A program made the translations under genes and the position numbers. This document shows, one piece after another, positions 3,195 to 20,731 of a stretch of DNA of 20,731 bases. The stretch's first letter is position 1. Every line of letters begins with the position of its first letter. Under the pieces are notes generated by a model, which saw only the letters and a program-made list of their open reading frames with translations, was not told the DNA's origin and made no database searches. Source of the stretch: a bacterium (GTDB lineage Bacteria > Zhuqueibacterota > Zhuqueibacteria > Oceanimicrobiales > Oceanimicrobiaceae); the NCBI GenBank assembly GCA_046757165.1, contig JBHHXT010000077.1:1-20731 (forward strand), written 5' to 3'.

Positions 3195-3510
3195 GCCTTC
3201 CTATGGCTTGTTGCCTTCTAATAATTAATAACAGCGTCCTTGCCAAGACGTATTTCAGGAAAAAGAGTATGAATGAGCTATCTCTCTGAAGCGCAGAAAA
3301 GTTCCGTTCAAACCACGAAGATGTGCGATATTGCAATAAGTTCAAATTTGCTTCTCCATGATTCAAAATCAAACCGCTAATTCACGCTAATGCCGCGAAC
3401 TTAAAGAACGCAGAGTTGCGCACTTCACGTCAATAAGATGTAAATCTAAGCGTATGATATCGGGCTATCCACGACTGATTCAAGAATCTCCATTGCAGAA
3501 GGGTGGGAAG

Positions 3511-6500: not shown

Positions 6501-7296
6501 CGTCAAGTCTTCCTATCCGACTCAGAATGCTGGCAGAAGGAGCACGGCCCGGGTTCAAAAGGATGTTTACAAAACGTACATCAAGTTCAAAGTCGAAGGT
6601 CTTCGCGAACGCGTACAAGGTGCCTATCTACGTCTCTTTGTTGTCGACGGCAGCGACCAGGGAGGCATGATCTACCTGGTATCGAACAATTACGTCGATT
6701 CCAGCACCGCCTGGGAGGAGAATCAGTTGATGTGGAGCAACGCGCCTCTTGTGGCCGGGGCATCACTGAGCGTCGTCAAGGAAGCAAAGGCTCATACACT
6801 TGTGGCGTTTGATGTGAAATCGGCGATCCCGGGCAACGGCATTTATAGTTTCGCCATCGTCAGTACCTCCCTGGATAAGGTCGCATACAGCACGAAGGAA
6901 GGAGTCAGCCCCCCAGTGCTCATCCTTGTTGAAAGCCCTTCATCACCGAACCCAGACGAGGCAGAGCAAACGCTGGCAACCGCCGCCGAACACGACAAGA
7001 CAACACCGCGCATGCCACAACAGATTGCTCTCAGTCCAACGTATCCCAATCCGTTCAACCTGGAGACCAGGCTCGAGTACGGTGTACCGGAACAGGCCAA
7101 AGTGCAACTGACGATCTACAATGTCAGAGGGCAACAAGTGCGCAAGCTCGTTGATGAAATCCAACCGCCGGGATACAAGAAGGTGTTCTGGAACGGGAAA
7201 GATAATACCGGCAATGTGGTCGGCTCAGGCGTCTACTTCCTGCAGCTTGTTGTTAACAAGCAAATTCTTACCAGAAAACTCACCCTGCAGAAATAG
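3511..7296 (+). CDS. Secreted multidomain beta-propeller phytase (3-phytase) with 3 DNRLRE/CBM96-like domains, 3 Ig-like tandem-95 (Big_9) repeats and a C-terminal FlgD-Ig/T9SS-like domain
   Basis: Signal peptide MKVLNVLLTVTVFAFIASSVAG from ATG 3511 (ORF track starts at 3454). Phytase motifs ADDPALWIHP, IIGTDK, EGFVVDDE, YISEE, DREGLGLY, GYLLLSSQGNS and TDGLDV. Repeats P.A.DD...V..ND.DPD...YTP...F.G.D.F.YTV.D (x3) and TDD..VKS..P..N.G...Y.KF.V....A.LRLF (x3). C-terminus YPNPFN...IYN.RGQ.VR.L...WNGKD..G..V.SGVYF. Confidence 0.88.
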   Translation: MKVLNVLLTVTVFAFIASSVAGQVSGRAAGDSLTFVPTDDGQVKSTRPAKNYGTKSTTKVERGLFNTYLKFDVTGIHAAVQHARLRLFVVEESNDGGALYLVSNNYLNTDAPWDEGGLTWNNAPTIADSVVSTLRLVTANTFVEFDVTAAISGDTTYSFAIRNGSTDRVQYSTKEGSHAPELIIETGVGKRNASPLAVDDKYVSEDSQSLVVSAPGVLENDRDPDGDFITATQASQPTHGSLVLNADGSFVFTPDAGFLGTDKFMYTVSDSSGGTAVGLVAVTFTFNDSARAAIVDPAISTNPTTGTADDPALWIHPTNSARSIIIGTDKVAGIFVWDLNGTELQHIEQGTQSNNVEVKTGVVFAGERVDIVAANLRGAGKLAVFKVNPDYTGSDVLVQIADMNSENNDIQADSYGFGLYRRPADGALFVFERPKNEGAIRQYRIVDDGTPNGVLVTPVRDLNYSGGVAEGFVVDDEMGFIYISEEAKGVHKYLVDPAMSSDPIALFATDDGIAGDREGLGLYACSDSTGYLLLSSQGNSTIKIYERQGDNRFLKTVIPANADGDFGLGTDGLDVTSSAAGPNLPNGFVVVHEEAGSRFHVYDWARFAGDDLTICVNGDVPGNGQNAAPIAVDDSLTTSVGAAVDIQVTANDRDPDGTIEGSTVLIVEPPLNGTAVVSSSEGVVTYTPNSNFVGRDLFSYTVADDDGARSNPANVTVTVSNDANINTFSFRATDDAHVKSTKPTTNYGDRLSLKVDAPLFHSYVKFRVSELSGPVQSARIRLFAINGSSDGGSIYSVSNNYKDSLTPWKEDSLHFSNAPDIMAPPISSAGAVGTGEIVEFDVTDVITAEGIYSFGILNQSTDKAEYSSDEGANPPELIVQAGSDGIGNLPPIALDDSATTMIERPVTIDVLANDSDPDDTLDVSTVAIVSPPASGSITTDMATGRVTYTPNNGFTGRDMFTYTVKDNTGELSNPAAVSVTVLTGARTLSFVPTDDVHVKSSYPTQNAGRRSTARVQKDVYKTYIKFKVEGLRERVQGAYLRLFVVDGSDQGGMIYLVSNNYVDSSTAWEENQLMWSNAPLVAGASLSVVKEAKAHTLVAFDVKSAIPGNGIYSFAIVSTSLDKVAYSTKEGVSPPVLILVESPSSPNPDEAEQTLATAAEHDKTTPRMPQQIALSPTYPNPFNLETRLEYGVPEQAKVQLTIYNVRGQQVRKLVDEIQPPGYKKVFWNGKDNTGNVVGSGVYFLQLVVNKQILTRKLTLQK

Positions 7297-9682: not shown

Positions 9683-12394
9683 TCACAGAATGGCAACTTC
9701 CTGCTGACCAAAGATGCGTCGTATAGTCTTTTGGTCCAGGAATGTTTCGGCCCCCGTATTCTTGCCTGTCACAACCTCCCGAACAGCCTGGCTTTCGATA
9801 AGCTGTCGAACTTGCCGGGAGGCAACCGAATTTTGCGGGAGGGTGCGGTTCCGAATATGGTCAATCGTCTCCGGATGGTCGACCAGGTGGGCGGTAAGCA
9901 GCGGCCACCTGAGTTCGAGGATGGTCCAGAGCACGAGCGGTCCGGTCTCGACGTCGCGTTCCTCCAGAAAGTTGACTGCCTGGCGCAGACTGAAGGCATT
10001 GATCAGCCGTTTCATGGCACGCGGATTGGGTTCGAGCAGCACAGAAAAGGGCTTGAGCTTGTGCTCGAGGTGCTCGCGCGCTTTCGCGGTCGTCATACGT
10101 TTTGCGGCAACCGCACGCAGACCCTGCTTGATGATGGCATCGCCTTCGTACTCGCTGACCACCTGCTTCAATTCGTCATCTGTCTGAGCCTGACCAATGA
10201 TCTTTTCTGCCTCCTTCTCGGCTTCTTGCTGCACTCTTTCGATGTCCTCCGGTGAACTCGAGCCGGCCGTTTCCAGCAACCGCGCCCAATACTCCCGCAT
10301 CGCGATGGCAGACAGGAGCGGCACGGAGGCCGAGACTTGAAATATTTTTTCGAGAAAAAGATAGCCGAGCGGCCGTCCGGGCTCGCCGATGGTTCCGGCA
10401 TAATCCTCGTAGCGCTTCTCAAAACTCATGCGCACCCAATCCCGGTCGGCAGCGACAACGTATGCCGCATTGCTATCGCGAAAAAGTGTCTGGATGCCCT
10501 CGAGCAGATCGACGACGTAGTCTCCCGTGCAGCGGTCCAGGTCGTCGATGAAGATCGCCAGGGGGCGGTCGATTTCATTCACCAGTTTCTTGAACAAAGA
10601 GGCGATGGGACGCAGGGGGTCGCTACTGAGATCCATGTACGTTTTCGCCGCCCTTGCGGAGCCGAACAGGAGTGAGCGGCTGGCGGCCACCAGGCCGGCC
10701 CAGACTGCCAGCAGTGCCGCGATGACTTTCAAGCCAAACTCGATCTGTTTACCCCGGTCGCCGCTGGTCGGGCTTTCGCCGAGAACGTTCAAGCTTCCGG
10801 TTACCAGCAAACTCATCCCCACGATCACAACCAACGCGATAACGACCGGCAACCAATCGGCGCGCAGCCGCCAGACAAACCAGCGCAGTCTCAGCTTGAA
10901 CGCTTGCCACGAACCCGCCTGACCAACCTGGTGCACGGCCTCGCTGTACACCTCCCGAATCAGCGGCCACCATGGCGGATTCGTGTGCTGGTTGCGCCAG
11001 GCATTGAAGTCCACCACGACCCACTTTTCTCCCAGGACTCCGGAGACCATGTGGCGCCGCATGAAATTGAGAAGAGAGGATTTGCCCGAGCCCCACGGGC
11101 CGTGCAGGTGGACGGCAAAAGCACAGGGACTCTTGTGCCAGACTTCATGGATGCGGGTCGCAATGACCTCGGCAAACGGCCGGCGGCCGAGCTCGTCGAT
11201 TTCGGCCGGGGAGTCGTTGTGGGTGGGAACGGTCTCTTTGAGCTCTGCTTTTGCGGGTGAGTCAGGGGTAGACCGGTTCGTAACGGCTTCAACAACTTTC
11301 GTAGCAAACTCGGAGAGCAGGCGGTCGGCTTCTTTCTTGTCCATCGTCGCAATGGCCTGGCCATCTTCAGGAAAAGGACGCAGCTTGGCCAGCCATGGCA
11401 CCTCTTGCCAGGGAGCCGGCTCCAGTATGATCGGTAGCAATAACTGCTGGTCCCCGCCTTGTTTTCTGAGGATGTTCAGGAATTCTTCCTCCCGGACAGC
11501 TTTCGACTGAAGATAGGTTGAGGTAATCAAGAACAGACAAGCCGACCACCGGTCCGATTCTGATTGTATTTGCACAACCTTGTCGCCATGGCCTCTGGTG
11601 AGGGTGGGTTCAGTACTCGAGCGAACAAGATTTTGTTTCAAAAACGGCTCGAAGTGGTGGCGAACTCGCGCCATCCAATGCTTGTCCCCCTCATGGTAAC
11701 TCAGGTAAACAAACGGTGGCTTCAGATCTTCTGATTCGTCACTCTGAGCATCTTCCACACCCTTCTGCTCTTCGCCCTTGTGTTTGCCTGGGATGAGCCT
11801 TGCGCGCAAGCTGTCGAGCGGAAAGGCCGGTCCGGGATCTTGTTTGCGACCCGGTGCGATCTCCTCATGACCCAGGATGGATGAGATCTGGTACTCTCGA
11901 ATGAGAAGCGCACTGATCTCCTCGACAAGCTTGATCTGCTCGTCGGTATATCGATGCCAGTATTTGTACTCGATTTGTGGGTTGCGGTGCCGGGCTTCGA
12001 CCACCTCTGATTCATTGTAGGTCTTTTCGAACCACGCATGATACGTCGTCCCTTTTTTTGTCAGCCAGCCGGCATTCTCCAGCTCAATCCCGATGGCGAA
12101 GTTATTGAAGCCCGTTCTTCCCTCGTAGGCGCTTCTGCCAGCGTGCCAGGCAACGACATTGAAGGGGAGCAATTGCGTTACCCCGCCGTCGCGCGCAATC
12201 ACCAGATGTGCGGACGCCTTTTGGTTCGGGTCGGTAAGGGCCTTTATGGCTGAGTCCGCATCCGGGGACATGGTTGCGTGAATAACGATGGTATCTGGCT
12301 CGAGCTGGCCCCCGTGGTTTGGCGATTTATGCAACGAGACCCTCTCCCCCTGCAACAGATGATTTGCAATGCTCATGGTGGGCGCAGTACTCAT
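9683..12394 (-). CDS. Fusion protein: N-acetylmuramoyl-L-alanine amidase (Amidase_2) + TIR-like domain + KAP-family P-loop NTPase with two TM helices
   Basis: Amidase: IVIHAT, ASAHLVIARDG, AWHAGRS, IGIELEN, GHEEIAPGRKQDPG. TIR: FVYLSYHEGD...CLFLITSTYLQSKAVREEE...LLPIILEPAPW. KAP: DELGRRPFA, Walker A GPWGSGKSS, FNAW, two TMs, Walker B IFIDDLDRC, FLEKIFQ, NPRAMKRLINA. Start uncertain (12376, 12394, 12412 or 12424). Confidence 0.85.
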   Translation of the reverse strand: MSTAPTMSIANHLLQGERVSLHKSPNHGGQLEPDTIVIHATMSPDADSAIKALTDPNQKASAHLVIARDGGVTQLLPFNVVAWHAGRSAYEGRTGFNNFAIGIELENAGWLTKKGTTYHAWFEKTYNESEVVEARHRNPQIEYKYWHRYTDEQIKLVEEISALLIREYQISSILGHEEIAPGRKQDPGPAFPLDSLRARLIPGKHKGEEQKGVEDAQSDESEDLKPPFVYLSYHEGDKHWMARVRHHFEPFLKQNLVRSSTEPTLTRGHGDKVVQIQSESDRWSACLFLITSTYLQSKAVREEEFLNILRKQGGDQQLLLPIILEPAPWQEVPWLAKLRPFPEDGQAIATMDKKEADRLLSEFATKVVEAVTNRSTPDSPAKAELKETVPTHNDSPAEIDELGRRPFAEVIATRIHEVWHKSPCAFAVHLHGPWGSGKSSLLNFMRRHMVSGVLGEKWVVVDFNAWRNQHTNPPWWPLIREVYSEAVHQVGQAGSWQAFKLRLRWFVWRLRADWLPVVIALVVIVGMSLLVTGSLNVLGESPTSGDRGKQIEFGLKVIAALLAVWAGLVAASRSLLFGSARAAKTYMDLSSDPLRPIASLFKKLVNEIDRPLAIFIDDLDRCTGDYVVDLLEGIQTLFRDSNAAYVVAADRDWVRMSFEKRYEDYAGTIGEPGRPLGYLFLEKIFQVSASVPLLSAIAMREYWARLLETAGSSSPEDIERVQQEAEKEAEKIIGQAQTDDELKQVVSEYEGDAIIKQGLRAVAAKRMTTAKAREHLEHKLKPFSVLLEPNPRAMKRLINAFSLRQAVNFLEERDVETGPLVLWTILELRWPLLTAHLVDHPETIDHIRNRTLPQNSVASRQVRQLIESQAVREVVTGKNTGAETFLDQKTIRRIFGQQEVAIL

Positions 12395-12625
12395 AATATT
12401 ATCAATCCCCATCTTGATCCACACGGATCTTTTGAACTAAAATATTTTTTCGTGTGGTTTTTTGATCCGCGTGCACCAAACATGTCTCTTCTTCAGGAAA
12501 ACCTTTTGTTGCTTCATAGATCTTCAATGCCAATCCGTCGGCTAACTCAAAAGCTTAAAGTTTCGTCTGATCTCCAATCGATTCTTCCTACAGCCTAAAA
12601 GTCTTCAGCCTATCTACCTGAATAG

Positions 12626-13090
12626 TCACACCCCCACCGTCAGATCCTCCCGCACGATGGGCAGCTCGTCGACATGCTGTTCGGCCCAGGCAGCCGCTTT
12701 TCCGTTGAGCGGGCTCTTGACGTTGTAGCTCTGGTAGCAGATCATCTCGCCGATGCGAACGACCAGGTGGGCGAGGGATTCGCCAGCGCTCCAGTGGTCA
12801 CCGATGCAGATCTTTTGCGGGTCGATGTTCGGGTGAAACACGGGCGTGATCATGCGGCAGAAGGGCGGGCGGCGTGGGTAATCCCTGAGCAGAAACACCT
12901 CAGCGCGGTGGGTGAGGGCGCGCTTGCAGGAATCGCCCTCTGTGGGGACCAGGCCAGCCACCTTGAATTCAAACGTGTACTTTTCCGGGGGCGTACCCTC
13001 TGTGTCGATCAGACGAATGTAGGGATGATCCTGGAAAGCAGCTTGAATGCGTTGATTGTCGGCATGAAGTCTTCGGATTCTCGGGGTCAT
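12626..13090 (-). CDS. Ubiquitin-conjugating enzyme E2 (UBC fold)
   Basis: RIRRL..D N-helix, DYPRRPPFCRMITPVFHPNIDPQKICIGDHW (YPxxPP, HPN triad, catalytic Cys codon 12806-12808, downstream Trp) and SPLNGKAA. GGAGGA SD before ATG 13090. Confidence 0.92.
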   Translation of the reverse strand: MTPRIRRLHADNQRIQAAFQDHPYIRLIDTEGTPPEKYTFEFKVAGLVPTEGDSCKRALTHRAEVFLLRDYPRRPPFCRMITPVFHPNIDPQKICIGDHWSAGESLAHLVVRIGEMICYQSYNVKSPLNGKAAAWAEQHVDELPIVREDLTVGV

Positions 13091-13180
13091 GGTGTCCTCC
13101 AGTTTCTGAATCAAGGTCCCGGGCCGGGCCGATTCCGTGAAACGTCAAACGTGATCGTCAAACTCCCGCTTTGTTCAACT

Positions 13181-13750
13181 TCAAGGTCGAGCAGAGCCGA
13201 GTGCTGTGTAGAGCAGCATAAAAAAGAGCACGAGGGCGGTCTGAGTAATGGCCACGCCCATGGCCACTTTGCACAGACCCGAGTACAGCACTGGCAGCGC
13301 CGCAATGTCCCGGGCATTTCTTTTGTACCAGAACGGTACGACCAGCGCGGCAAGGGGCGCAGTACAGGGCAGGATGCTGAGAATCGTGCGCCAGATGACC
13401 TTTTTGCGCAAAGCGGGAAGCCGCTTTTCCAGAGCCTGATGCTGCTGGAATTCTGCCTGCTTCATGGGCGCCGCAGTAGAGAATCTTGCACCGCAATGGC
13501 GACAGCGGATGGCGGCCGCCAGAATTTCTTGACCACAATGAGGGCAGGGTTTGCGTTCATCGCCCCAGTAGGAGACCGGAATTTCAATGGCGTGCAGGTG
13601 CTCTGTTTCCGGAACCTGGGCACAGCCGTAGAGCGCACACCCCTGGTTTTCCTGCCAGCACTCCGTATGGTATGGCGAGCTGCACTCGGGGCAGCGGTAG
13701 ATTTTGGACCGCGTTGCCGGCAGCGGTGTCTGACAAATGGCACACAGCAT
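13181..13750 (-). CDS. Membrane-anchored prokaryotic RING-finger protein (Prok-RING_1-like) with zinc ribbon; putative E3 ligase
   Basis: CAIC-x13-CPEC-x4-H-x2-CW-x5-C-x4-C (YHTECWQENQGCALYGC). A second Zn ribbon (CPHC...CRHC) and two C-terminal hydrophobic helices follow. ATG lies 3 nt after the upstream stop codon. Confidence 0.8.
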   Translation of the reverse strand: MLCAICQTPLPATRSKIYRCPECSSPYHTECWQENQGCALYGCAQVPETEHLHAIEIPVSYWGDERKPCPHCGQEILAAAIRCRHCGARFSTAAPMKQAEFQQHQALEKRLPALRKKVIWRTILSILPCTAPLAALVVPFWYKRNARDIAALPVLYSGLCKVAMGVAITQTALVLFFMLLYTALGSARP

Positions 13751-13753
13751 CTT

Positions 13754-15157
13754 TTACGCCTGCCTTGTTTGAAAGACGAAAGAAGTCCGCCCGATGGTGA
13801 TTCTGTCGCCGTGTCGCAGCCGAGAGCGCTGGACGGCGCGGTCATTCACGATGACGGGTTTCTCCCGGCTCAGGCTTTGGATTTCACAGTCGTCGCCGAT
13901 GGTGCGCAAGGTGGCATGCCGGCTGACCACCTGCGGGTCGTTGAACAGGTAAATCTCGCACTTCGGTGAAGCGCCGATGGTCATGGTATCTTTGAAGAAC
14001 AAAAATTCTTTGCCAGCCAGCGGCCCTTCGGTCATGCGCAGCCACGCATCCCGCGCCAGCAGTTGCACGACACCGATCATGACGCCGACACTCAAGCCGA
14101 TAAGCGTGAAGCCGATCATTCGGCTCAGATGCGCGCTGGGCGTAGCCTCTCCCTGAATGAGAAAATAAATCGGATCGAAGAACAGGCCGCCCAGCAGGCC
14201 TCCGACCACGCCGCCGAGAAAACCGTAGATGAGCAACCGTTTCGAGCGCAGAGCAATCCCCTGGCCGAGCCCCATGGCGAGACCGATCAACGCCCAACTG
14301 CCGCCCCGTCCGATGATTTGCAGAAAAAAGGCAAAGGAGCTGAATTGGCCCGCTTCACTGACCTGGCGCATGACCACACTATTCACCGAGGCATAGAGCA
14401 GGCCTCCGAAGAGATGAGAAACAAAGCCCCCCACCAGGCCGACGAGCAGGCCCACCAGGCCGCCCAGGAGCGCACGCCTGATGAGACGGCAAACCAGCCC
14501 TTCAGCGGCACCAACTGCCAACCCGATGGCGCCCGCTATCAGCGGAAAGACGAGCATACCGAACAAACTGTCACGCCTGTCCAATTCTCTCAGGGATAAA
14601 GTTGCTTTTTCCGGGGGCGGGCTCACAGGGTTGAGGATGACGTAAACACCGAGAGCAATGTCGTTTACCAGCGTTGAGACATACTCCAGATAGATCCCGA
14701 CTTCCCGGCCTTGCCGCAGTTCGTTCGCCTGCAAAGGCACAGCTTCGCCGTCGCTGTACTCCTGCACCCCCTGCCACAGCCAGATTTTGTGGCCGTTGAC
14801 GTCAATCCAGCCCAGGCCGGAGAGCTCTGACGCATCGCCGTTGGATGGCAGATCACCGGTAGAGGGCAGGGCCGCCTGCAGGTTCAGGTTTTCGATCGGG
14901 CCCTGGAGATAGAAAAGATCGTCGATGTAGGGCTCGGTAAAGGCCCAGACAGCAAACGCGGCCAGCGCCCCGGCCAGGCCGAAAACAAACCAATTTTGCA
15001 AGTACCAGACCGTGCGCGTGCGCTCCTTGGTGATGCCGACATCGCCGGTGAGGCTGCGCTGCCGGTTCAGAAAGTCGTCAACCTTTGCGCTCATCGCCTC
15101 CTCGTGCGTGATGCGAATCGGCTCATCAGTCGTAGTGGATTTGTCGCTCTGGCTCAT
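13754..15157 (-). CDS. Multi-pass membrane protein with C-terminal FHA-fold domain
   Basis: One N-terminal TM, an ~120-aa loop, then about 5 Gly-rich TM helices. C-terminus WLRMTEGPLAGKEF...TIG...CEIYL..D..V.SRHA...VN......L.HGD.ITIG. ATGA overlap with the JAB stop codon (15154-15157). Confidence 0.85.
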   Translation of the reverse strand: MSQSDKSTTTDEPIRITHEEAMSAKVDDFLNRQRSLTGDVGITKERTRTVWYLQNWFVFGLAGALAAFAVWAFTEPYIDDLFYLQGPIENLNLQAALPSTGDLPSNGDASELSGLGWIDVNGHKIWLWQGVQEYSDGEAVPLQANELRQGREVGIYLEYVSTLVNDIALGVYVILNPVSPPPEKATLSLRELDRRDSLFGMLVFPLIAGAIGLAVGAAEGLVCRLIRRALLGGLVGLLVGLVGGFVSHLFGGLLYASVNSVVMRQVSEAGQFSSFAFFLQIIGRGGSWALIGLAMGLGQGIALRSKRLLIYGFLGGVVGGLLGGLFFDPIYFLIQGEATPSAHLSRMIGFTLIGLSVGVMIGVVQLLARDAWLRMTEGPLAGKEFLFFKDTMTIGASPKCEIYLFNDPQVVSRHATLRTIGDDCEIQSLSREKPVIVNDRAVQRSRLRHGDRITIGRTSFVFQTRQA

Positions 15158-16149
15158 GGTTTCTGTCCCTCCCTTTTATCAGATGGTGTTTCTTTCTTGT
15201 CTTTCTCGACGGGCACCTCCAGCCCGACAATTTGTACCGTCAGGAAAACCGTTTTGTCCCCGATACGTACCGGGATCGGCACGCTGCGCAGGCTCTCGAT
15301 CCTGGGCACGACCGGGTTGGTCGTGTACTGGAAATATATCCAATGTCCGGCCCACGCCACGACGACCACGAGGACCAAAACGACGACAAACATGACAAAC
15401 AGGTGCAGGCCATTGCGGTGCGATTCCACGTTGTGCATCAACTGGTCGAGCTTCGATTCCAGCGCTCGAATTTCCTCAGAAAGCGCCTCCTCTCGCGGTT
15501 GCGGGTTGTCCTGAGAGGGCGGCGTCTGGCAGCGCATTTCCTTGCCGCCTACCCAGAAGTGGCGCAGCGCAGCGATCCCATGCTCCGCGTTGGCACAGAT
15601 GGCCACCTCACCGATCACCGGGTCTGTCACCAGGGCAACCTGGGTTGGCGATGAAAAAAAATTACGCTGGATGAACAGGTCCATTTCAGAAAACTGCACG
15701 CCAAATCCCGGATGGGAATGGTACCAGCCGACGATCTGCATATCGGGATACTCGTTATCCCGTGTGTGATGAATCTTGTTCCAGGTCTCCTGGGTGAAGG
15801 TCACATGCGTGCTCCCCTCTTTGGCGCCTTCTCCTTCGATAACGGCCTTGACTTGCACATGGTCGCCGTCCTCATCCTCGCCCACCACACCGAGGAGCAC
15901 ACCACAGATTTCGGCGTCCAGGGACGAACGGGCGTGCGCCACCACGCTGGCATAGGCTTGTTTCTCGAAGAAAACACGCAGCTGAGCGCTCTGCGTACCA
16001 GGCACGGGAAAGGGCTGGGAAGATTTCTGTGTGACCTCTTGCCACTCTCCAACGGCTACGGCACCGGCGCCCGGGTCTGGCGTCTGTTTCTGCTTTTGCG
16101 ACTTTTTCTTGCCGGATTTTGTGCGTTTGTTTTTCTTCTTGGGCCACAT
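15154..16149 (-). CDS. JAB/MPN+ (JAMM) metallo-isopeptidase with C-terminal coiled coil and TM anchor
   Basis: Catalytic Glu in EICGVLLG. VGWYHSHPGFGVQFSEMD gives HxH-x7-S-x2-D (HSH at 15712-15720). Coiled coil LSEEIRALESKLDQL and TM LFVMFVVVLVLVVVVAWAGHWI. AAGGAG SD. Confidence 0.92.
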   Translation of the reverse strand: MWPKKKNKRTKSGKKKSQKQKQTPDPGAGAVAVGEWQEVTQKSSQPFPVPGTQSAQLRVFFEKQAYASVVAHARSSLDAEICGVLLGVVGEDEDGDHVQVKAVIEGEGAKEGSTHVTFTQETWNKIHHTRDNEYPDMQIVGWYHSHPGFGVQFSEMDLFIQRNFFSSPTQVALVTDPVIGEVAICANAEHGIAALRHFWVGGKEMRCQTPPSQDNPQPREEALSEEIRALESKLDQLMHNVESHRNGLHLFVMFVVVLVLVVVVAWAGHWIYFQYTTNPVVPRIESLRSVPIPVRIGDKTVFLTVQIVGLEVPVEKDKKETPSDKREGQKP

Positions 16150-16241
16150 GGGCGTTCTCCTTTTGTCGGGTTACCAGGCCACAACCCACCAAAAATCACC
16201 GAAAAACTGTGCTAAGAAAACACAATGTTGTCGGCTTGTAG

Positions 16242-16446
16242 GACGGATTAAACACGGATTCTGTCGATGATAAACAATTCTTCATATCCAAAACTCATTT
16301 TTTCGTGTCAATTCGTGTCAATCCGTGGCTAAGTACTGGTTTTCACCAATTCGATGACATATCGCCTCACGCAAAGCCGCAAAGTCTGCCGAGAAATGAA
16401 GGTCAAAAACAAACAAACTCTGCGCGCTCGGCGTCTTTGCGTGAGA
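16242..16446. repeat. Intergenic palindromic repeat elements within the ubiquitin-like cluster
   Basis: ACGGATTAAACACGGATT (~16242-16260) faces CGTGTCAATTCGTGTCAATCCGTGG (~16304-16328). Perfect 11-bp inverted repeat CTCACGCAAAG (16366-16376) / CTTTGCGTGAG (16435-16445). Confidence 0.65.
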
Positions 16447-16507
16447 TTAAGTCCGTAATAGTATGTACGAATTCCTGTACTAAGTATATCCGGGGCGCCA
16501 ACTCGGG

Positions 16508-17332
16508 TTACATCACATTGGCCACCAATCCCAGCCAGAACGGGAGCCAGGCCAGCACGCCAACGCTCCCGAACAGGATGCCGGCGATGGCCAGGCCCTT
16601 TCCTCGCAATTCTTGCCGCCCCTCCTTTATCAGACTCAAGCTTTTCACGCCATAATAAATCGCGAATGAAGAGCCAATGCCAGCCAGCCAGAAGATACCC
16701 AGGGCAAAACTCCTCTTCGCCAGGCGCATGACGGCGTCCTGAAGGTCATCAAATTGTCTCTCCGCAACCTCTTGCCCGAGTGACTCGGGTTCGGGCCCAG
16801 CGACCATAGCCAGGCCGCATTCCGGACATCTGGGCAGCCCTTCGATGGGCGATTGGCAGGCTGGACACTTATCGCCTGCGTCCTCCGGAACAGGTTCCTG
16901 AGCGGGTGGCGACGCTTCGTTGATGACCTCGCACGCGCGGTCGAAATCGTCCTGACGAACCTGGATTTGAACCGGGCCTGCCACGACGTTGAACCCGGCA
17001 CCGATTTGTCCGACTCCGAACAGGTGCTGCACACCGGCATTCTTCGAATAGGAGGGAATGCCGGCGCTTTCCAACAGCCCCACAACCGCCACGCGCTCCG
17101 CTTCGTCGTTTGGAATGAAGACGGTTCGCAATGCTACCTGGCCCTCCAGGTCCTGATCGATGTCCTCAACCTCCTGATTTTCCTCCACGATCTTGTTGGG
17201 GTCGTGCACATAATATTCGTTGTTGCATTTCTTGACAAACTTCTGTGGATAGTCGCGGACGTTGAAGTGCAGATGCTTGCAGACGCCGGTCTCGCTTTGA
17301 AAATGTCTGCATGTTTGGCATAAGTTGCTCAT
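16508..17332 (-). CDS. Membrane protein: N-terminal Cys cluster + DUF2007-like (PII-like signalling) domain + Zn ribbon + DUF4190-like TM hairpin
   Basis: CQTC..C..C at the N-terminus, then EAERVAVVGLLESAGIP...GPVQIQVRQDDFDRACEVI, CPAC...CPECG and SFALGI...G.KSL..IK....LRGKGLAIAGILFG. Start taken at ATG 17332, 23 nt after the E1 stop (ORF track starts at 17395). Confidence 0.75.
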   Translation of the reverse strand: MSNLCQTCRHFQSETGVCKHLHFNVRDYPQKFVKKCNNEYYVHDPNKIVEENQEVEDIDQDLEGQVALRTVFIPNDEAERVAVVGLLESAGIPSYSKNAGVQHLFGVGQIGAGFNVVAGPVQIQVRQDDFDRACEVINEASPPAQEPVPEDAGDKCPACQSPIEGLPRCPECGLAMVAGPEPESLGQEVAERQFDDLQDAVMRLAKRSFALGIFWLAGIGSSFAIYYGVKSLSLIKEGRQELRGKGLAIAGILFGSVGVLAWLPFWLGLVANVM

Positions 17333-17355
17333 GTCAAGATCCCCATTATCAGACG

Positions 17356-18516
17356 TTAGAGTGGGTTGTCTCCACTGATCTCCAAACCCAGACACAGGTC
17401 ACCGGATCTGGCCCAAACGATATCCCACCTCGGCAGCCCCAACTGCCTCGGCGTCATTTCGAGCAATTCACTCCCGCCCTCGATAGCGTGCAAGAACACC
17501 GGCGCCGCCTCCGCGCCACAATGCGCACACACCGCCCGTTCCGCGCTAATGTTCTCGAGCGATTGCCACACCGGCACGGTCTGGCCGCAGGTCGGGCACG
17601 CCAGCGCCCGCACCAGCTCACGCGCCAGGTCGATGGCATCCAGCCCGCCCAGTTTTTGCCTCGCATACTCCGCGACCACGCTCAGCGGCGTCTCCGACGT
17701 CATCTGTGGCAGGGGCTCGATCTCCGGCGGCGGCTCGTGCCAGGGGCACTCCGGGTTGATCGGGTAAGTCACCGCGTAGGAGTCATGGCTGAGGCCGTCA
17801 AAAAAGTACCCTTTGCCTTGCAGGGTTTCGAGACCGTGCAGCCATTTGACTACCTCCTGCGCTTGCATGGCGCCGATAACCGAGGCCGTGGTCGGGGTGG
17901 TCGGAGTGCCGTTGTTGGCCAGTGCCCGCCGTTCCAGCAGCGAGCAGGAGCGGCGCTGGTTGATCTGCTGCCAGTCCGCCTGGCTCATGGTACACTCGTA
18001 GCACGAGCTCTCCGGCGGGTTGAAGCCGCGCACGATGCCGTGCAGCACCTCGATGCCGCCGTCTATCCACGGCTTTCCGACTTGTGCACAGGCGGCGTTG
18101 ACAAACACTCGCGCCTCACGATTGTCCAGCGCGCCGACCACCACATCGGCCCAGCGGAAGATGCCCAGTCCGATATCCGCCAGGATGTTGCCCACCATCG
18201 GGATGGGGTGGACTTCCGGGCAGATCTCCTGCATCATCACGGCGGCACACTCCGCTTTGCTCATGCCCTGATTCGAGGCGCGAAACAAAATCGAGCGTGT
18301 CAGGTTGCTTGCCTCGATGCAGTCCATATCCACGATGACGACGTGCCTCAATCCGAGCAGCGCGAAGTTCTTGAGCACCTCGTTGCCGAGGGCGCCGGCG
18401 CCCACCACCAGAACACGAGCCTTCTGCAAGCGTTCCTGTTGCCACCACTCGATTTTCTCGAAGCGGGCGTAGCGGCCCTCTTCAAGCCCGAGCGCAGCCG
18501 GCTCCCGGGGAGTCAT
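17356..18516 (-). CDS. Ubiquitin-activating enzyme E1 (ThiF/UBA family) with extended C-terminal Zn-ribbon/UFD-like region
   Basis: RYAR arginine finger, VLVVGAGALGNEVLKN, DMDCIEASNLTR, ALDNREAR, Zn ligands CYEC and CPWH, putative catalytic Cys in RRSC (17944-17946). About 125 extra C-terminal aa carry CPTC/CAHC. ATGA overlap with the Ubl stop codon. Confidence 0.92.
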   Translation of the reverse strand: MTPREPAALGLEEGRYARFEKIEWWQQERLQKARVLVVGAGALGNEVLKNFALLGLRHVVIVDMDCIEASNLTRSILFRASNQGMSKAECAAVMMQEICPEVHPIPMVGNILADIGLGIFRWADVVVGALDNREARVFVNAACAQVGKPWIDGGIEVLHGIVRGFNPPESSCYECTMSQADWQQINQRRSCSLLERRALANNGTPTTPTTASVIGAMQAQEVVKWLHGLETLQGKGYFFDGLSHDSYAVTYPINPECPWHEPPPEIEPLPQMTSETPLSVVAEYARQKLGGLDAIDLARELVRALACPTCGQTVPVWQSLENISAERAVCAHCGAEAAPVFLHAIEGGSELLEMTPRQLGLPRWDIVWARSGDLCLGLEISGDNPL

Positions 18517-18803
18517 CGTTTGTTCGACCCCGCACCGCCTGCGGTAATCTCCGGCTGCAACCGCAACTCGTCCCCCTCGCCCACGCCAACCTCAGAAAAA
18601 GTCTGATTGTCCAGAAGTTGTTGGCCAGTCCGCCGGTGGTGCAGCTTGTAGATCATGATCTGGCCATCCGGACTGTTGAGCGGCAGGTTCATGCGCTCGA
18701 CCAGGAGCGCGATGATGCGGTCGACCGCGATATCGTCCGGCGCTTCCACCTCGCGGCTGCGACTGCCAGAGATATCTGTGACGCGAACATGTAAGGTTGC
18801 CAT
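18513..18803 (-). CDS. Ubiquitin-like (beta-grasp) protein with diglycine followed by a 6-aa tail
   Basis: LHVRVTDISGSRSREVE beta-hairpin, helix VDRIIALLVERMNLP, YKL and LLDNQTFSEVGVGEGDELRL (compare ubiquitin [20 protein letters not shown]). Ends ITAGG-AGSNKR. AGGAGG SD. Confidence 0.9.
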   Translation of the reverse strand: MATLHVRVTDISGSRSREVEAPDDIAVDRIIALLVERMNLPLNSPDGQIMIYKLHHRRTGQQLLDNQTFSEVGVGEGDELRLQPEITAGGAGSNKR

Positions 18804-18974: not shown

Positions 18975-19610
18975 TTATTCTACAAGTAATCCGACAATGA
19001 CCAAAAAGACAAAACACACGACGATCAGGCCATTCCATGCAATGGCGGCCCATACGGAACCCTGGCCTTGCGTGCCTTTGTCGCGCGCACTCATCCCAAG
19101 AACGGCGCCCACAAAACTCGCACCCGCCGACGCAAACAACACCAGACCAAAGAAAGTCTCTGCCCCCTCCGAGTCGGCCATATTAATGAGCACAATGGAT
19201 ACGGCCATCAGCACGGTAGCCACAATGGCCAGGATGAACGACCAGGTGCGCATTCTTCGTTTTGGCGGCGACATTTCTTCGCCCATGCTCACGGCACAAT
19301 GCGGGCAGTAATGATAATAGGAGAAGACGAAATCGCAGGTTGCGCAGATAGGCGTGCGGCAAATGCAGCAAACGGCAGTGGCCGGCACCTCGCGGTGTGT
19401 CACGCACATCGTGCTCACGCCAGAGACCCTCCCTGCTCTTCCCGCCTGATCCGCCGTCGGCTCGCCGTTTGCGCATCCAGGACACTGATATTTTCCCTCC
19501 CCCTTCTCTTCAGCGCAGGCGTCGCACACCGGGGCGCTGCATGTTTCACAAAAGTGCTCAGCGGGGAGCTGGCGATGAAAACGACAGTATATTTCAGGGC
19601 TGGCCAACAT
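18975..19610 (-). CDS. Membrane protein with two tandem B-box-type zinc fingers and three C-terminal TM helices
   Basis: CRFH-x8-CETC-x4-CDAC...CPGC and CVTH-x8-CCIC-x4-CATC...CPHC, then three hydrophobic helices. GGAGGG SD before ATG 19610 (ORF track starts at TTG 19625). Confidence 0.8.
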   Translation of the reverse strand: MLASPEIYCRFHRQLPAEHFCETCSAPVCDACAEEKGEGKYQCPGCANGEPTADQAGRAGRVSGVSTMCVTHREVPATAVCCICRTPICATCDFVFSYYHYCPHCAVSMGEEMSPPKRRMRTWSFILAIVATVLMAVSIVLINMADSEGAETFFGLVLFASAGASFVGAVLGMSARDKGTQGQGSVWAAIAWNGLIVVCFVFLVIVGLLVE

Positions 19611-19642
19611 CTCATTTCCCTCCAATCTTGTAAAAGAGATGA

Positions 19643-20041
19643 TTACACGTTTTCCACCAGAGCTCCCAGAACACCTATCATGAAAAGGAAGATGTACACG
19701 CCTGCGATGACCAAGGCAGCCGTGGACTGGCCGGCACCCTCCAGTTGCGGGTCCTCTTTGATCATCCGTTTGGCTTTGAGCGCTTTGAAAATGGCCACCG
19801 GCTCGAGAATGAAGCCGATGCAGAACAGCCCAACAATGGCACAGGTCAGGGCGTCGCTGGCTTCCTTACACGGAACGGTTGGCCGGTGCTCCGGAACCGG
19901 CGGGCGCTTGACCGTCACATATTTGCACTCACCGCAGTACGTCTGCCCCTGAATCTCAACCAAACAGTTGGCGCAGAACCCCTCGGCACAGGCAACACAG
20001 CGCTCCACCGCTTCCACACCCGTGTGATTTGTGCATTCCAT
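19643..20041 (-). CDS. B-box-type zinc finger + DUF4190-like membrane protein
   Basis: CTNH-x8-CVAC-x4-CANC...YCGEC, then ALTCAIVGLFC.G.IL.PVAI.KA.KA...I......GAGQSTAAL. GGAGGGAG SD before ATG 20041. Confidence 0.8.
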   Translation of the reverse strand: MECTNHTGVEAVERCVACAEGFCANCLVEIQGQTYCGECKYVTVKRPPVPEHRPTVPCKEASDALTCAIVGLFCIGFILEPVAIFKALKAKRMIKEDPQLEGAGQSTAALVIAGVYIFLFMIGVLGALVENV

Positions 20042-20183
20042 GACTCTTGCTCCCTCCGTTATTGGGCGCGCGATCAAAATGAATGATGGATTGAATCGAA
20101 ACCATAGCAGGCCCACATGTCGTTCCTACTCTCTAATAAATAGACACATTGCAGGGTAGTTTTCTCTCAGGTTTGTGGCATTC

Positions 20184-20600
20184 TCAAGGCTCGAGCTCCG
20201 GCTCGCAGCAACATTCTGCCGCATAGACGAGGTCGCAAATCAGTGCCCATCTCCCTTTGTTGGGACCGTCCTTCGCCTGCTGACACTCACAGGCGTCCTC
20301 TTTTGCCGGCGCGCGCAAGATCTTTTGCGGACATCGTGGGTCGGTACAGTCATACCAGGTGTCACAAAAGCTCTTGGCCTGGTCCCAGGCAAGGCCGTAG
20401 GTGCTGTCAACGGCTGCTTTCTGTTCACATTCTTCTTTGCTGTCATACCATCCGTCAAACTCGTACCCCACGGGGACGTTGTCACACTCACAGGGCAAGC
20501 CTTTGGGATAGTCACTCCTGAACCCATCATCAGGCCGGCACACCATTGCCACGAGCGAAAAAACCAAAACGAGCAAAGGGCACCACAGGAGTCTCCTCAT
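20184..20600 (-). CDS. Small secreted or lipoprotein-like Cys-rich hypothetical protein
   Basis: Signal-like N-terminus MRRLLWCPLLVLVFSLVAMVC from ATG 20600, followed by 12 further Cys in ~117 aa including CEC twice and CCC. No family recognised. Confidence 0.55.
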   Translation of the reverse strand: MRRLLWCPLLVLVFSLVAMVCRPDDGFRSDYPKGLPCECDNVPVGYEFDGWYDSKEECEQKAAVDSTYGLAWDQAKSFCDTWYDCTDPRCPQKILRAPAKEDACECQQAKDGPNKGRWALICDLVYAAECCCEPELEP

Positions 20601-20731
20601 CTCAATTGTTCTCACAAAGTTTAGTTGTAGCGTGCGGCAAGCGGAATTCGGCACGCATGCTCCCTGTCATCAGGAGGACTCCTTCGGTTTCAGAAAGTGG
20701 CTGCCAGCAAAAGTTGAAAGACCTGGGGTGA

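Follow-up and report, generated by a model that had tools for sequence, protein, structure and literature searches.

Can a bacterium maintain a complete ubiquitin-type conjugation cascade, including a RING-type ligase, at its membrane? This question is raised by a gene cluster on contig JBHHXT010000077.1, the whole of which (20,731 bases, hereafter the window) was analysed. A first-pass annotation had described there seven co-oriented genes for a ubiquitin-like protein (Ubl), an activating enzyme (E1), a DUF2007/DUF4190 protein, a JAB peptidase, a transmembrane (TM) protein with an FHA domain, a membrane-bound RING protein as candidate ligase (E3) and a conjugating enzyme (E2), and had read them as a three-step pathway assembled at the membrane. 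The experimentally studied bacterial families with such enzymes are type II CBASS, Bil and Bub (PMC11601596, PMC11601603; papers given by PMC number are cited here from excerpts of their text). An experimental study of a bacterial RING-containing cascade was not found in a search of the full-text literature, which leaves most subscription journals outside. The locus is filed under the prokaryotic Ubl/E1/E2/RING/JAB operons with Prok-RING_1 (PF14446), a class defined bioinformatically, and it probably constitutes a self-contained, chromosomal eight-gene cassette for membrane-tethered Ubl conjugation, which in this copy is interrupted between the E1 and JAB genes.

Gene content and conservation of the cassette

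All seven open reading frames (ORFs) of the first-pass annotation were recovered on the minus strand with the coordinates and in the order that it had listed, namely Ubl (18513..18803), E1 (17356..18516), the DUF2007/DUF4190 gene (16508..17395), JAB (15154..16149), TM-FHA (13754..15157), RING-TM (13181..13750) and E2 (12626..13114), and in a Pfam scan all seven proteins score above the curated cut-offs. The ATGA overlaps at the Ubl/E1 and JAB/FHA junctions and the spacing of only 3 nt between the FHA and RING genes (TAA, three nucleotides, ATG) are exactly as described before. Catalytic residues and domains are intact and, depending on the protein, invariant over 20 to 43 aligned orthologues, which bears out the earlier statement that the motifs of E1, E2, JAMM peptidase and RING finger are complete. 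Hydropathy predicts one TM helix in JAB, about six in TM-FHA, two to three in RING-TM and two in the DUF2007/DUF4190 protein, while none is found in Ubl, E1 and E2. Membrane anchoring of ligase, peptidase and FHA protein, as previously proposed, is thus in agreement with hydropathy, and TM helices are present in five of the eight cassette proteins. The whole cassette measures about 7 kb and its catalytic heads are soluble.

The extent of the unit was defined by comparison with 52 related loci, assigned by record titles to Planctomycetota (23), Verrucomicrobiota (11), Acidobacteriota (9) and others (9). These loci stem from a one-genome-per-species scan with two peptide patterns, and their number is a lower bound and biased to close relatives; their content was established by searching six-frame ORFs with the window proteins and recounted by aligned positions. 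The co-occurrence in gene neighbourhoods, which the first-pass annotation had named as a check, is kept: Ubl, E1, JAB, TM-FHA, RING and E2 are colinear on one strand in 40 of the 42 loci that reach 5.3 kb or farther upstream of E2, an arrangement far beyond chance given such recurrence. Both exceptions, L033 and L054, hold a partial E2 only. Median identity to the window amounts to 68% for Ubl, 66% for E2, 58% for E1 and 50% for TM-FHA.

Two further genes coding for B-box-like membrane proteins, Bbox2 and Bbox1, precede Ubl, and of the 39 loci that extend 6.9 kb or more upstream, 35 contain all eight genes (besides L033 and L054, the exceptions are L050, which has no B-box match, and L057, in which Bbox1 was not detected). 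Hence, both B-box genes belong to the cassette, and the conserved unit comprises the eight genes Bbox2-Bbox1-Ubl-E1-JAB-TMFHA-RING-E2. The cluster boundary drawn by the first-pass annotation was therefore too short, as the cluster extends to position 20116. Conversely, the DUF2007/DUF4190 gene, which had been counted as a cassette member, has no match in any of the 52 related loci (six-frame ORF search), where E1 directly abuts JAB. For this reason it is classed as a window-specific local insertion lying outside the conserved cassette. In sum, the earlier interpretation holds for the Ubl-E1-E2-RING-JAB set and its intact residues, while its boundaries and the membership of the DUF gene had to be corrected. 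In L033 and L054, the partial E2 covers residues 15-153 and 57-154, respectively, and every other cassette gene is absent in 10 kb upstream; these loci may be cassette remnants.

Ubl precursor and JAB peptidase

The Ubl gene encodes a 96-amino-acid precursor with a YukD-like beta-grasp fold (YukD, 1.2e-9), and its ATG is preceded by a GGAGG motif. When the Ubl profile was compared with the PDB, nothing beyond weak matches to polyubiquitin (E 0.06) was obtained. At the C-terminus, all of the 34 aligned sequences share E85-I86-T87-A88-G89, followed directly by a stop in five of them and by tails of varying length and sequence in the rest, seven residues in case of the window protein. An invariant EITAG motif followed by a stop or a variable tail points to trimming by JAB and activation of the C-terminal glycine, so that the mature end is predicted at Gly89 with the seven-residue tail removed, and the apparent Gly-Gly of the window protein would be coincidental. 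K53 is likewise invariant and represents the sole lysine of the mature part of the window protein.

The enzyme predicted to process this precursor is a JAB/MPN+ metallopeptidase of the Rpn11 type (JAB, 3.4e-14), in which E80, H144, H146, S154 and D157 are invariant in 43 sequences. One TM helix (residues 243-275) follows the catalytic part and leads into a conserved proline-rich extracytoplasmic tail. The best match among solved structures is CsRpn11 (6fjv, 9e-18), with eukaryotic Rpn11 and CSN5 next. Entry 6FJV is the CsRpn11 of Caldiarchaeum, an enzyme that takes a nine-residue tail off the CsUb precursor and cuts conjugates too (PMC6043591). By this likeness the window JAB is predicted to act both in Ubl-precursor processing and in deconjugation.

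E1 and the sulfur-carrier explanation

At 386 amino acids, the window E1 contains a single adenylation domain (ThiF, 1.4e-52). Invariant alignment columns include G39, G41 and G44 of the GxGxxG motif, Cys191 and a zinc site formed by C172, C175, C257 and H260, while a second, equally invariant zinc ribbon (C307, C310, C330, C333) lies within the C-terminal domain (about residues 262-386). In profile searches against the PDB, the eukaryotic enzymes UBA7, UBA1, UBA3 and SAE2 score from 1.7e-40 to 1e-32, ahead of the sulfur-carrier enzymes ThiF (1.8e-28) and MoeB (3.7e-24). Structural comparison was carried out with an AlphaFold2 (AF2) model of the whole protein (pLDDT 90.3) using VIA-align. The model matches SUMO E1 (9dqb_B) with Z 28.3 and rmsd 3.7 over 308 aligned residues (model 16-383), and Uba1 chains over model residues from about 10 to 382, reaching chain residue 1024. 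While alignments with ThiF and MoeB cover residues 11-261, those with SUMO E1, UBA3 and Uba1 continue to about residue 382, at the C-terminal ends of these proteins, all ranges being given by first and last aligned residues only; in numbers, about 300 residues are aligned for the canonical E1s versus about 230 for ThiF and MoeB. These ranges suggest a UFD-like C-terminal domain. An inserted catalytic-cysteine domain (SCCH/FCCH) is missing, and Cys191 occupies the crossover loop, a location shared with ThiF, MoeB and Uba5-type enzymes. From this architecture and the small size, the protein is best described as a minimal form of a canonical E1, presumably working in an E1-like manner.

The same fold gives rise to a competing explanation, in which Ubl and E1 form a sulfur-carrier or biosynthetic pair of the ThiS/MoaD type and the other genes are unrelated. 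The ThiF fold of E1, the terminal glycine of Ubl and matches to the NCBIfam equivalogs ThiF and MoeB are what this explanation can draw on, but those matches stay far under the cut-offs (126.5 versus 275.25 for ThiF, 115 versus 449 for MoeB). Moreover, conservation of the pair goes strictly together with that of E2, RING and JAB, E1 is nearer to eukaryotic E1s, and neither a rhodanese domain nor cofactor or biosynthetic genes are encoded in the window or the conserved flanks. A sulfur-carrier pair is therefore regarded as extremely improbable.

E2, RING and their predicted complex

The E2 is of the UBC type (UQ_con, 3.5e-10; 40.1 bits versus a cut-off of 27). Its start is likely the ATG at 13090, giving 154 amino acids, since GGAGG precedes this codon and homologues are also about 154 residues long. 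In this numbering, none of 20 aligned sequences deviates at H86-P87-N88 or C95. In the PDB, eukaryotic E2s match best (6zm3 at 8.7e-11 and several UBE2N/Ubc13 entries at about 1.5e-8); the protein aligns to their active sites, and formation of a thioester with Ubl would be expected of such a classical UBC protein. Taken together, E1, E2 and JAB appear nearer in sequence to eukaryotic and archaeal enzymes than to bacterial sulfur-carrier enzymes.

The candidate E3 next to it matches Prok-RING_1 (2.9e-9, 37.2 bits versus a cut-off of 29.1), and among the matches listed across its own genome this is the one Prok-RING_1 hit. Its C4HC3 finger is binuclear (C3, C6, C20, C23, H28, C31, C38, C43) with a conserved W32. 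In the orthologue alignment, C20, C23, H28, C31, C38 and C43 are invariant, C6 is nearly so, and C3 is present in every row not truncated by the choice of start codon. A second zinc ribbon (C69, C72, C83, C86), also invariant, is followed by the C-terminal TM helices, which hydropathy places within residues 118-186, and the hydrophobic C-terminal region aligns in 35 sequences. This agrees with the Pfam description of PF14446, which reportedly ascribes TM helices to bacterial versions of the RING protein.

Owing to an ambiguity between RING and PHD fingers, which is weighed further below, E2 and RING residues 1-62 were chosen for complex prediction. This prediction, of a kind that the first-pass annotation had also proposed, gave an ipSAE of 0.66 versus 0.00 for the best of three controls, with at least 95% contact agreement between runs and a partner pLDDT of at least 74. 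Of 157 solved complexes, 116 reach this mark, as do 2 of 215 mismatched pairs; both counts apply only approximately, since our own alignments were used. On the E2 side, the interface consists of residues 3-14, 66-77 and 93-104, which we take to be the N-terminal helix and the two loops by which classical E2s bind RING domains. The predicted complex would thus employ the canonical E2 surface. Additionally, a natural RING-zinc ribbon-E2 fusion exists (P0121).

This geometry also bears on the nature of the acceptor. Ubl might be attached to a membrane lipid or another envelope amine in an Atg8-phosphatidylethanolamine-like lipidation, as the non-enzymatic partners, the E3 and the peptidase are all located at the membrane, no protein substrate is evident from gene context, and precursor trimming resembles the logic of Atg4 and Atg8. 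However, the E2 is a classical UBC protein with an HPN motif rather than an Atg3/Atg10-like one, and the predicted RING-E2 geometry is canonical for lysine aminolysis. Such a reaction is considered very unlikely, and lysines of proteins stay the preferred acceptors.

The membrane FHA protein and the assembly-factor explanation

TM-FHA, the putative scaffold, matches Yop-YscD_cpl (4e-14) and FHA (3.1e-9). Its AF2 model (pLDDT 81.8, pTM 0.73) places a cytoplasmic helix at the N-terminus, ahead of TM1 (55-77); a beta-sandwich on the periplasmic side (82-174) comes next, and five long TM helices (189-367) then precede the FHA domain in the cytoplasm (371-464). When the complete model was used for fold searches, FHA matches alone were returned, and the FHA domain superimposes well on GarA and OdhI (GarA 6i2q_B: Z 19.1, rmsd 1.3, 97 aligned residues). 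Aligned to GarA, the domain keeps the Gly, His and Asn residues, with N438 being invariant, while GR has become GA in the window protein, and the Ser of the GarA motif VSRRHA is replaced by Val here and by Ala in the family consensus. In Pfam, the region scores best against the YscD-type family. As the phosphothreonine-binding Arg and Ser are absent and the YscD-type family matches best, phospho-reading is unlikely and the domain is read as a phospho-independent docking module. The "FHA adaptor" of the first-pass annotation hence stands as a membrane FHA protein, but not as a link to kinases.

TM-FHA belongs to a large family, since its profile retrieves 620 representative clusters at E<=1e-30 library-wide. 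Among the best 150 rows, many cover the five-helix and FHA part alone, after other N-terminal parts. Pfam was run on 13 of these 150 rows and identified five proteins with two FHA domains, three with vWA and one with JAB in front, the latter being a natural JAB-TMFHA fusion (P0242). Family members P0242-P0390 probably reside mostly outside Ubl cassettes. A TM-FHA-UQ_con fusion cluster suggested by a Bacillota lead was not recovered directly; instead, an E2-FHA-kinase protein (P0183) and P0242 were found.

An FHA domain of this kind next to a YukD-like protein invites comparison with type VII secretion systems (T7SS). In Bacillus subtilis, the T7SSb core is stabilised by YukD, which attaches non-covalently to the FHA domains of YukB (PMC12637312). 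By analogy, the window Ubl might serve mainly as a non-covalent assembly factor that docks on FHA, conjugation being secondary or absent. This explanation has in its favour that the Ubl falls into the Pfam YukD family and that the FHA domain is closest to the phospho-independent YscD type and lacks the Arg and Ser mentioned above. The YukD of T7SS is not known to be activated or conjugated, whereas the window Ubl possesses an invariant, activatable glycine and a dedicated E1, E2 and E3. The invariant EITAG with its trimmed-looking tails and the conserved residues of E1, E2, RING and JAB demand C-terminal activation, and neither are T7SS genes present here nor do secretion-system genes recur in the flanks of the related loci. 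A purely structural Ubl is for these reasons deemed quite unlikely; an assembly role and conjugation could nevertheless coexist, with FHA acting as a receptor for conjugated Ubl.

B-box membrane proteins

Bbox2 (19643..20116, minus strand) is the first cassette gene and encodes a cytoplasmic B-box-like zinc finger followed by a two-helix DUF4190 anchor. The finger columns are C28, H31, C40, C43, C48, C51, C61 and C64, and K65 is invariant. In the window protein itself both families score below the cut-off (DUF4190 31.8 bits; ANCHR-like B-box 0.0034), while its orthologues match DUF4190 in 33 of 37 and the ANCHR-like B-box in 27 of 37 cases. The position of Bbox2 upstream of Bbox1 is kept in related loci. 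Bbox1 (18975..19625, minus strand) combines two B-box-like zinc fingers with three C-terminal TM helices and matches zf-B_box above the cut-off (9.1e-8, 32.6 bits versus 24.1), as do 23 of 30 orthologues. Of its two fingers, the second (C74...C110) is the conserved one. Just upstream of Bbox2, a 156-residue Cys-rich protein with an N-terminal hydrophobic segment is encoded at 20184-20654 (minus strand); no protein family matches it (best Pfam E 0.076), and none of the 52 loci has a counterpart.

Insertion and repeats in the window copy

The inserted DUF2007/DUF4190 gene (DUF4190 3.7e-10, DUF2007 2e-7) probably starts at M22 (17332), and its product contains a Cys-rich N-terminus, DUF2007, a zinc ribbon and a DUF4190 membrane anchor. 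Among 40 related genomes, seven contain partial, domain-wise matches, and not one of these seven was hit with E2 as query. A gap of 358 nt separates the inserted gene from JAB. This gap contains a dispersed host repeat of about 155 nt (16329..16485) with an inverted repeat (16366-16393 / 16418-16445). When the gap was searched against its own genome, 42 matches were listed including the self-match, roughly two dozen of which cover window positions 16329-16485 on other contigs with 76-94% identity. Public read evidence, consisting of contigs from four DNA runs of one study, shows contig breaks in the gap and a word depth five to seven times higher there. Similarly, the spacer after E2 (12484..12625) holds a dispersed element some 140 nt long and a shorter piece of about 40 nt (12580-12625); the short piece has at least 30 copies in the own-genome search, and the public runs again display raised word depth and contig breaks in this spacer. 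Three contig joints skipping about 6.2-6.5 kb were discarded as repeat or other-organism artefacts, their sides being only 21-27 letters long, and a repeat search of the window identified no element common to the skip-joint sites.

The repeats in the gap and after E2, together with a gene lacking counterparts in related loci, indicate that a lineage-specific gene and host repeats have entered the window copy of the cassette, and all cassette genes have remained intact despite these events. The inserted protein shares the Bbox2 layout of zinc finger plus DUF4190, and DUF4190 is also fused to this E2 family (P0186), so that the cassette may have recruited the inserted gene as a further adaptor or substrate. 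An Rfam scan of the window at the gathering threshold gave no match. Nine sigma-70 promoter-like sites compare with 2.9 expected, none being convincingly placed, and the terminator count is at chance level.

Distribution and natural fusions

The E2 has 1422 homologues of similar length at E<=1e-5, many of them 65-80% identical and labelled Planctomycetota, Verrucomicrobiota, Acidobacteriota or Thermodesulfobacteriota. Among the 40 related genomes, only two matched the E2 query, and none of the 20 from the same family did. Both matches come from genomes of the same taxonomic class and hold E1, E2 and JAB in a different order (L064 = G037:C79; L065 = G032:C35). By Pfam, L064 (2068-5436, minus strand) is a compact five-gene locus devoid of TM-FHA and B-box genes, in which a PHD/RING- or IBR-like zinc-finger protein (161 amino acids), E1, a YukD-like Ubl (91 amino acids), E2 and JAB (259 amino acids) follow each other; in size it is similar to the compact archaeal operon.

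In a tree of 39 E1 sequences built by a quick method, phylum labels change 12 times, with a minimum of 8 and a mean of 19.8 after shuffling. A value as low as 12 was reached in none of 200 shuffles, so E1 clusters by phylum, with Planctomycetota in several places and no resolved position for the window. These patterns suggest that the cassette is an accessory element of patchy occurrence, transferred now and then but long resident in several lineages.

Beyond the cassette, the E2 family appears in numerous fusions, whose E2 portions are 50-64% identical to the window E2: with FHA and a Ser/Thr kinase (P0183), with DUF4190 and a trypsin-like domain (P0186) and with RING and zinc ribbon (P0121), as well as with DUF2752, with TPR and with zinc_ribbon_4/5 (P0140/P0160 and P0150 are among the fused proteins). 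Such variety suggests that membrane-linked E2 systems have radiated more widely in bacteria. In the RING-E2 and JAB-TMFHA fusions, genes that neighbour each other in the cassette are combined, which fits a physical association of these proteins, although read-through or assembly could account for part of the fusions.

Genomic context and the question of antiphage defence

Defence against phages was among the functions that the first-pass annotation had put forward. Applied to this cassette, it would imply a conflict system with Bil-like logic that tags phage or host proteins at the membrane, with periplasmic domains sensing the attack. Several observations are compatible with such a role. Other bacterial E1/E2/JAB operons are immune systems (PMC11601596), and mobile operons of this type have been proposed by Aravind and colleagues as selfish or conflict elements (PMC3417536). 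Self-containment is evident here as well, and the flanks are not conserved: their commonest family, a DUF2752 membrane protein after E2, is seen in nine loci, and the E2 family occurs in just 2 of 40 relatives and 0 of 20 in the same family, both hits being the different compact variant. Finally, only 200 nt downstream of E2, the window encodes a 913-residue Amidase_2-TIR-KAP NTPase protein (9683-12424, minus strand). Pfam identifies Amidase_2 (6e-27; N-acetylmuramoyl-L-alanine amidase), TIR_2 (1.5e-4) and KAP_NTPase (4.6e-33, with membrane helices inside it), and PADLOC yields matches to ThsB (6.5e-7), QatA (7.6e-23) and PifA (6.6e-19). This protein looks like a stand-alone defence or conflict protein.

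The wider context does not extend this association. The Amidase_2-TIR-KAP protein stands beside the cassette in none of the 52 other loci. PADLOC, one of the checks named in the first-pass annotation, assigned no system to the 11 window proteins and returned generic E1-E2 and JAB matches only. Flanking genes were examined as the three nearest ORFs per side, delimited by our own greedy ORF picker, in loci with at least 3.5 kb on both sides. Among the resulting 98 ORFs of 18 loci, six have PADLOC matches at E<=1e-10, all of them partial (mad2, mad3, Csa3, PD-Lambda-2_B), and no complete defence system was found. Likewise, no close relative was found in IMG/VR, INPHARED or PLSDB, the sole plasmid match being an E2 with 25.5% identity on a Crinalium plasmid. 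The data hence do not show a defence-island context, and the antiphage suggestion retains little support from gene surroundings. Furthermore, cross-phylum identity is very high and E1 clusters by phylum, which fits long residence better than arms-race turnover. All in all, an antiphage function appears rather unlikely, and as the output of the cassette envelope-protein regulation, quality control or signalling would rank above it.

Elsewhere in the window, positions 3454-7296 (plus strand) encode a 1280-residue predicted surface protein unrelated to the cassette. It comprises three CBM96 modules, bacterial Ig/cadherin-like repeats and a phytase domain, and it shows a weak match to a C-terminal sorting tail.

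Relation to known systems

Burroughs, Iyer and Aravind reportedly predicted this operon class by comparative genomics in 2011 (Mol Biosyst), and Burroughs et al. are said to have discussed, in 2011 and 2012, RING E3s in prokaryotic Ubl operons, a possible conjugation of YukD-like Ubls and the UFD of E1. The literature at hand agrees with the first-pass annotation that RING-containing bacterial Ubl operons have been predicted in silico, and in more than one context (PMC7159879, PMC3417536). Operons with E2, "sometimes E3" and JAB are described as mobile (PMC3417536), "some examples of complete operons" in bacteria are noted (PMC5654768), and the vWA-MoxR/FtsH conflict systems hold a complete set with a prokaryotic RING E3 (PMC7159879). 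With RING-bearing bacterial Ubl systems in print in several contexts, the present cassette is not a first.

The closest resemblance is to the PF14446 operons themselves, which share Prok-RING_1 in a membrane-bound RING protein, an E1 of the ThiF type that carries a C-terminal domain, a YukD-like Ubl, an HPN-type E2 and JAB; the window copy differs by its additional DUF2007/DUF4190 gene and the host repeats. The reconstituted Ub-E1-E2-srRING-Rpn11 operon of Caldiarchaeum subterraneum (PMC5654768) follows the same three-step logic with a RING E3. Here, too, a precursor with a short tail is processed by a JAMM peptidase that also deconjugates, and CsRpn11 is the best solved relative of the window JAB. 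The Caldiarchaeum proteins are soluble, however, and their Ub ends in Gly-Gly, while RING and JAB of the window are membrane-anchored, its Ubl would end in Ala-Gly, and the set is larger by a polytopic FHA protein and a pair of B-box membrane proteins.

Bil, Bub and the Cap2/Cap3 proteins of type II CBASS possess bacterial E1/E2/JAB-type machinery as well, for which conjugation has been proven, but in the excerpts of these reports they are described without a RING E3 (PMC11601596, PMC11601603), which the window has. Cap2 is a fusion of E2 and E1, whereas the window E1 and E2 are separate genes, and PADLOC found no CD-NTase among the 11 window proteins. BilD carries tandem adenylation domains, one inactive and one active, in contrast to the single domain of the window E1; the PADLOC match of BilD to this E1 (9.3e-5) spans only residues 33-95, i.e., 63 residues. 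The cassette is thus not a member of Bil, Bub or type II CBASS. Closer in the type of ligase are the vWA-MoxR "FtsH ternary" modules (Kaur et al. 2020, PMC7159879), which share JAB, E1 and a prokaryotic RING-type E3. According to the same excerpts, these modules feature a Ubl-E2 fusion with EAD1, caspase-like effectors, MoxR/vWA and FtsH, none of which is found in or next to the cassette. T7SSb, finally, resembles the cassette in encoding a YukD-family Ubl with a membrane FHA protein (PMC12637312), and set beside this pairing the cassette FHA is without phosphate-binding residues.

Proposed mechanism and implications

From the residue conservation, homologies and models described above, the following cycle can be proposed. 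The Rpn11-like JAB would trim the 96-residue Ubl precursor after Gly89, as suggested by the conservation pattern and the CsRpn11 precedent. By homology and the models, E1 would then adenylate Gly89, form a thioester on Cys191 and recruit E2 through its UFD-like C-terminal domain, whereupon Ubl would be handed to Cys95 of E2. The membrane RING is predicted to hold E2 on the canonical helix-1/loop surface and might promote transfer of Ubl to target lysines at the cytoplasmic face of the inner membrane. The six-helix TM-FHA and the two B-box proteins would act as scaffold, adaptors or first substrates, and JAB would also reverse the tag.

Several points weigh against this conjugation pathway. The case for it is built on sequence and models. 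Judged from the window and the locus flanks, neither the cassette nor its surroundings encode an unfoldase or a protease as partner. The Ubl is YukD-like and ends in Ala-Gly rather than Gly-Gly. Among solved structures, a PHD finger and the EL5 RING-H2 are equally close in sequence to the RING finger (both E 1.3e-3), and the complex of this finger with E2 belongs to a type already solved, so the score may reflect likeness instead of real binding of this pair. The UFD assignment derives from aligned ranges of a whole-protein model, not from a domain-level search. In the window, moreover, the insertion and the 358-nt repeat-bearing gap part E1 from JAB-FHA-RING-E2, and co-expression might suffer.

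A more far-reaching idea is that the cassette works as a transmembrane Ubl switch, in which the TM-FHA beta-sandwich and the JAB tail sense an envelope cue and set the balance between tagging by RING and E2 and untagging by JAB of B-box/DUF4190 adaptors or of a lipid head group, with FHA as the Ubl receptor. We rate this specific version as unlikely. If true, it would be a bacterial counterpart of ubiquitin-dependent membrane-protein sorting or of endoplasmic-reticulum-associated degradation, and possibly a bridge between YukD/FHA secretion-system modules and true ubiquitination.

To the previously predicted operon class, the present analysis adds the eight-gene definition, the EITAG maturation site, the phospho-independent FHA domain, the canonical predicted E2-RING interface, the natural fusions and the lack of a defence-island context. 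Because of its compact size, soluble heads, cross-phylum conservation and eukaryote- and archaea-like enzymes, the conjugation cassette offers a good entry point to how RING-type ubiquitination arose before eukaryotes and to what a membrane-tethered ubiquitin-like tag does for a bacterium.

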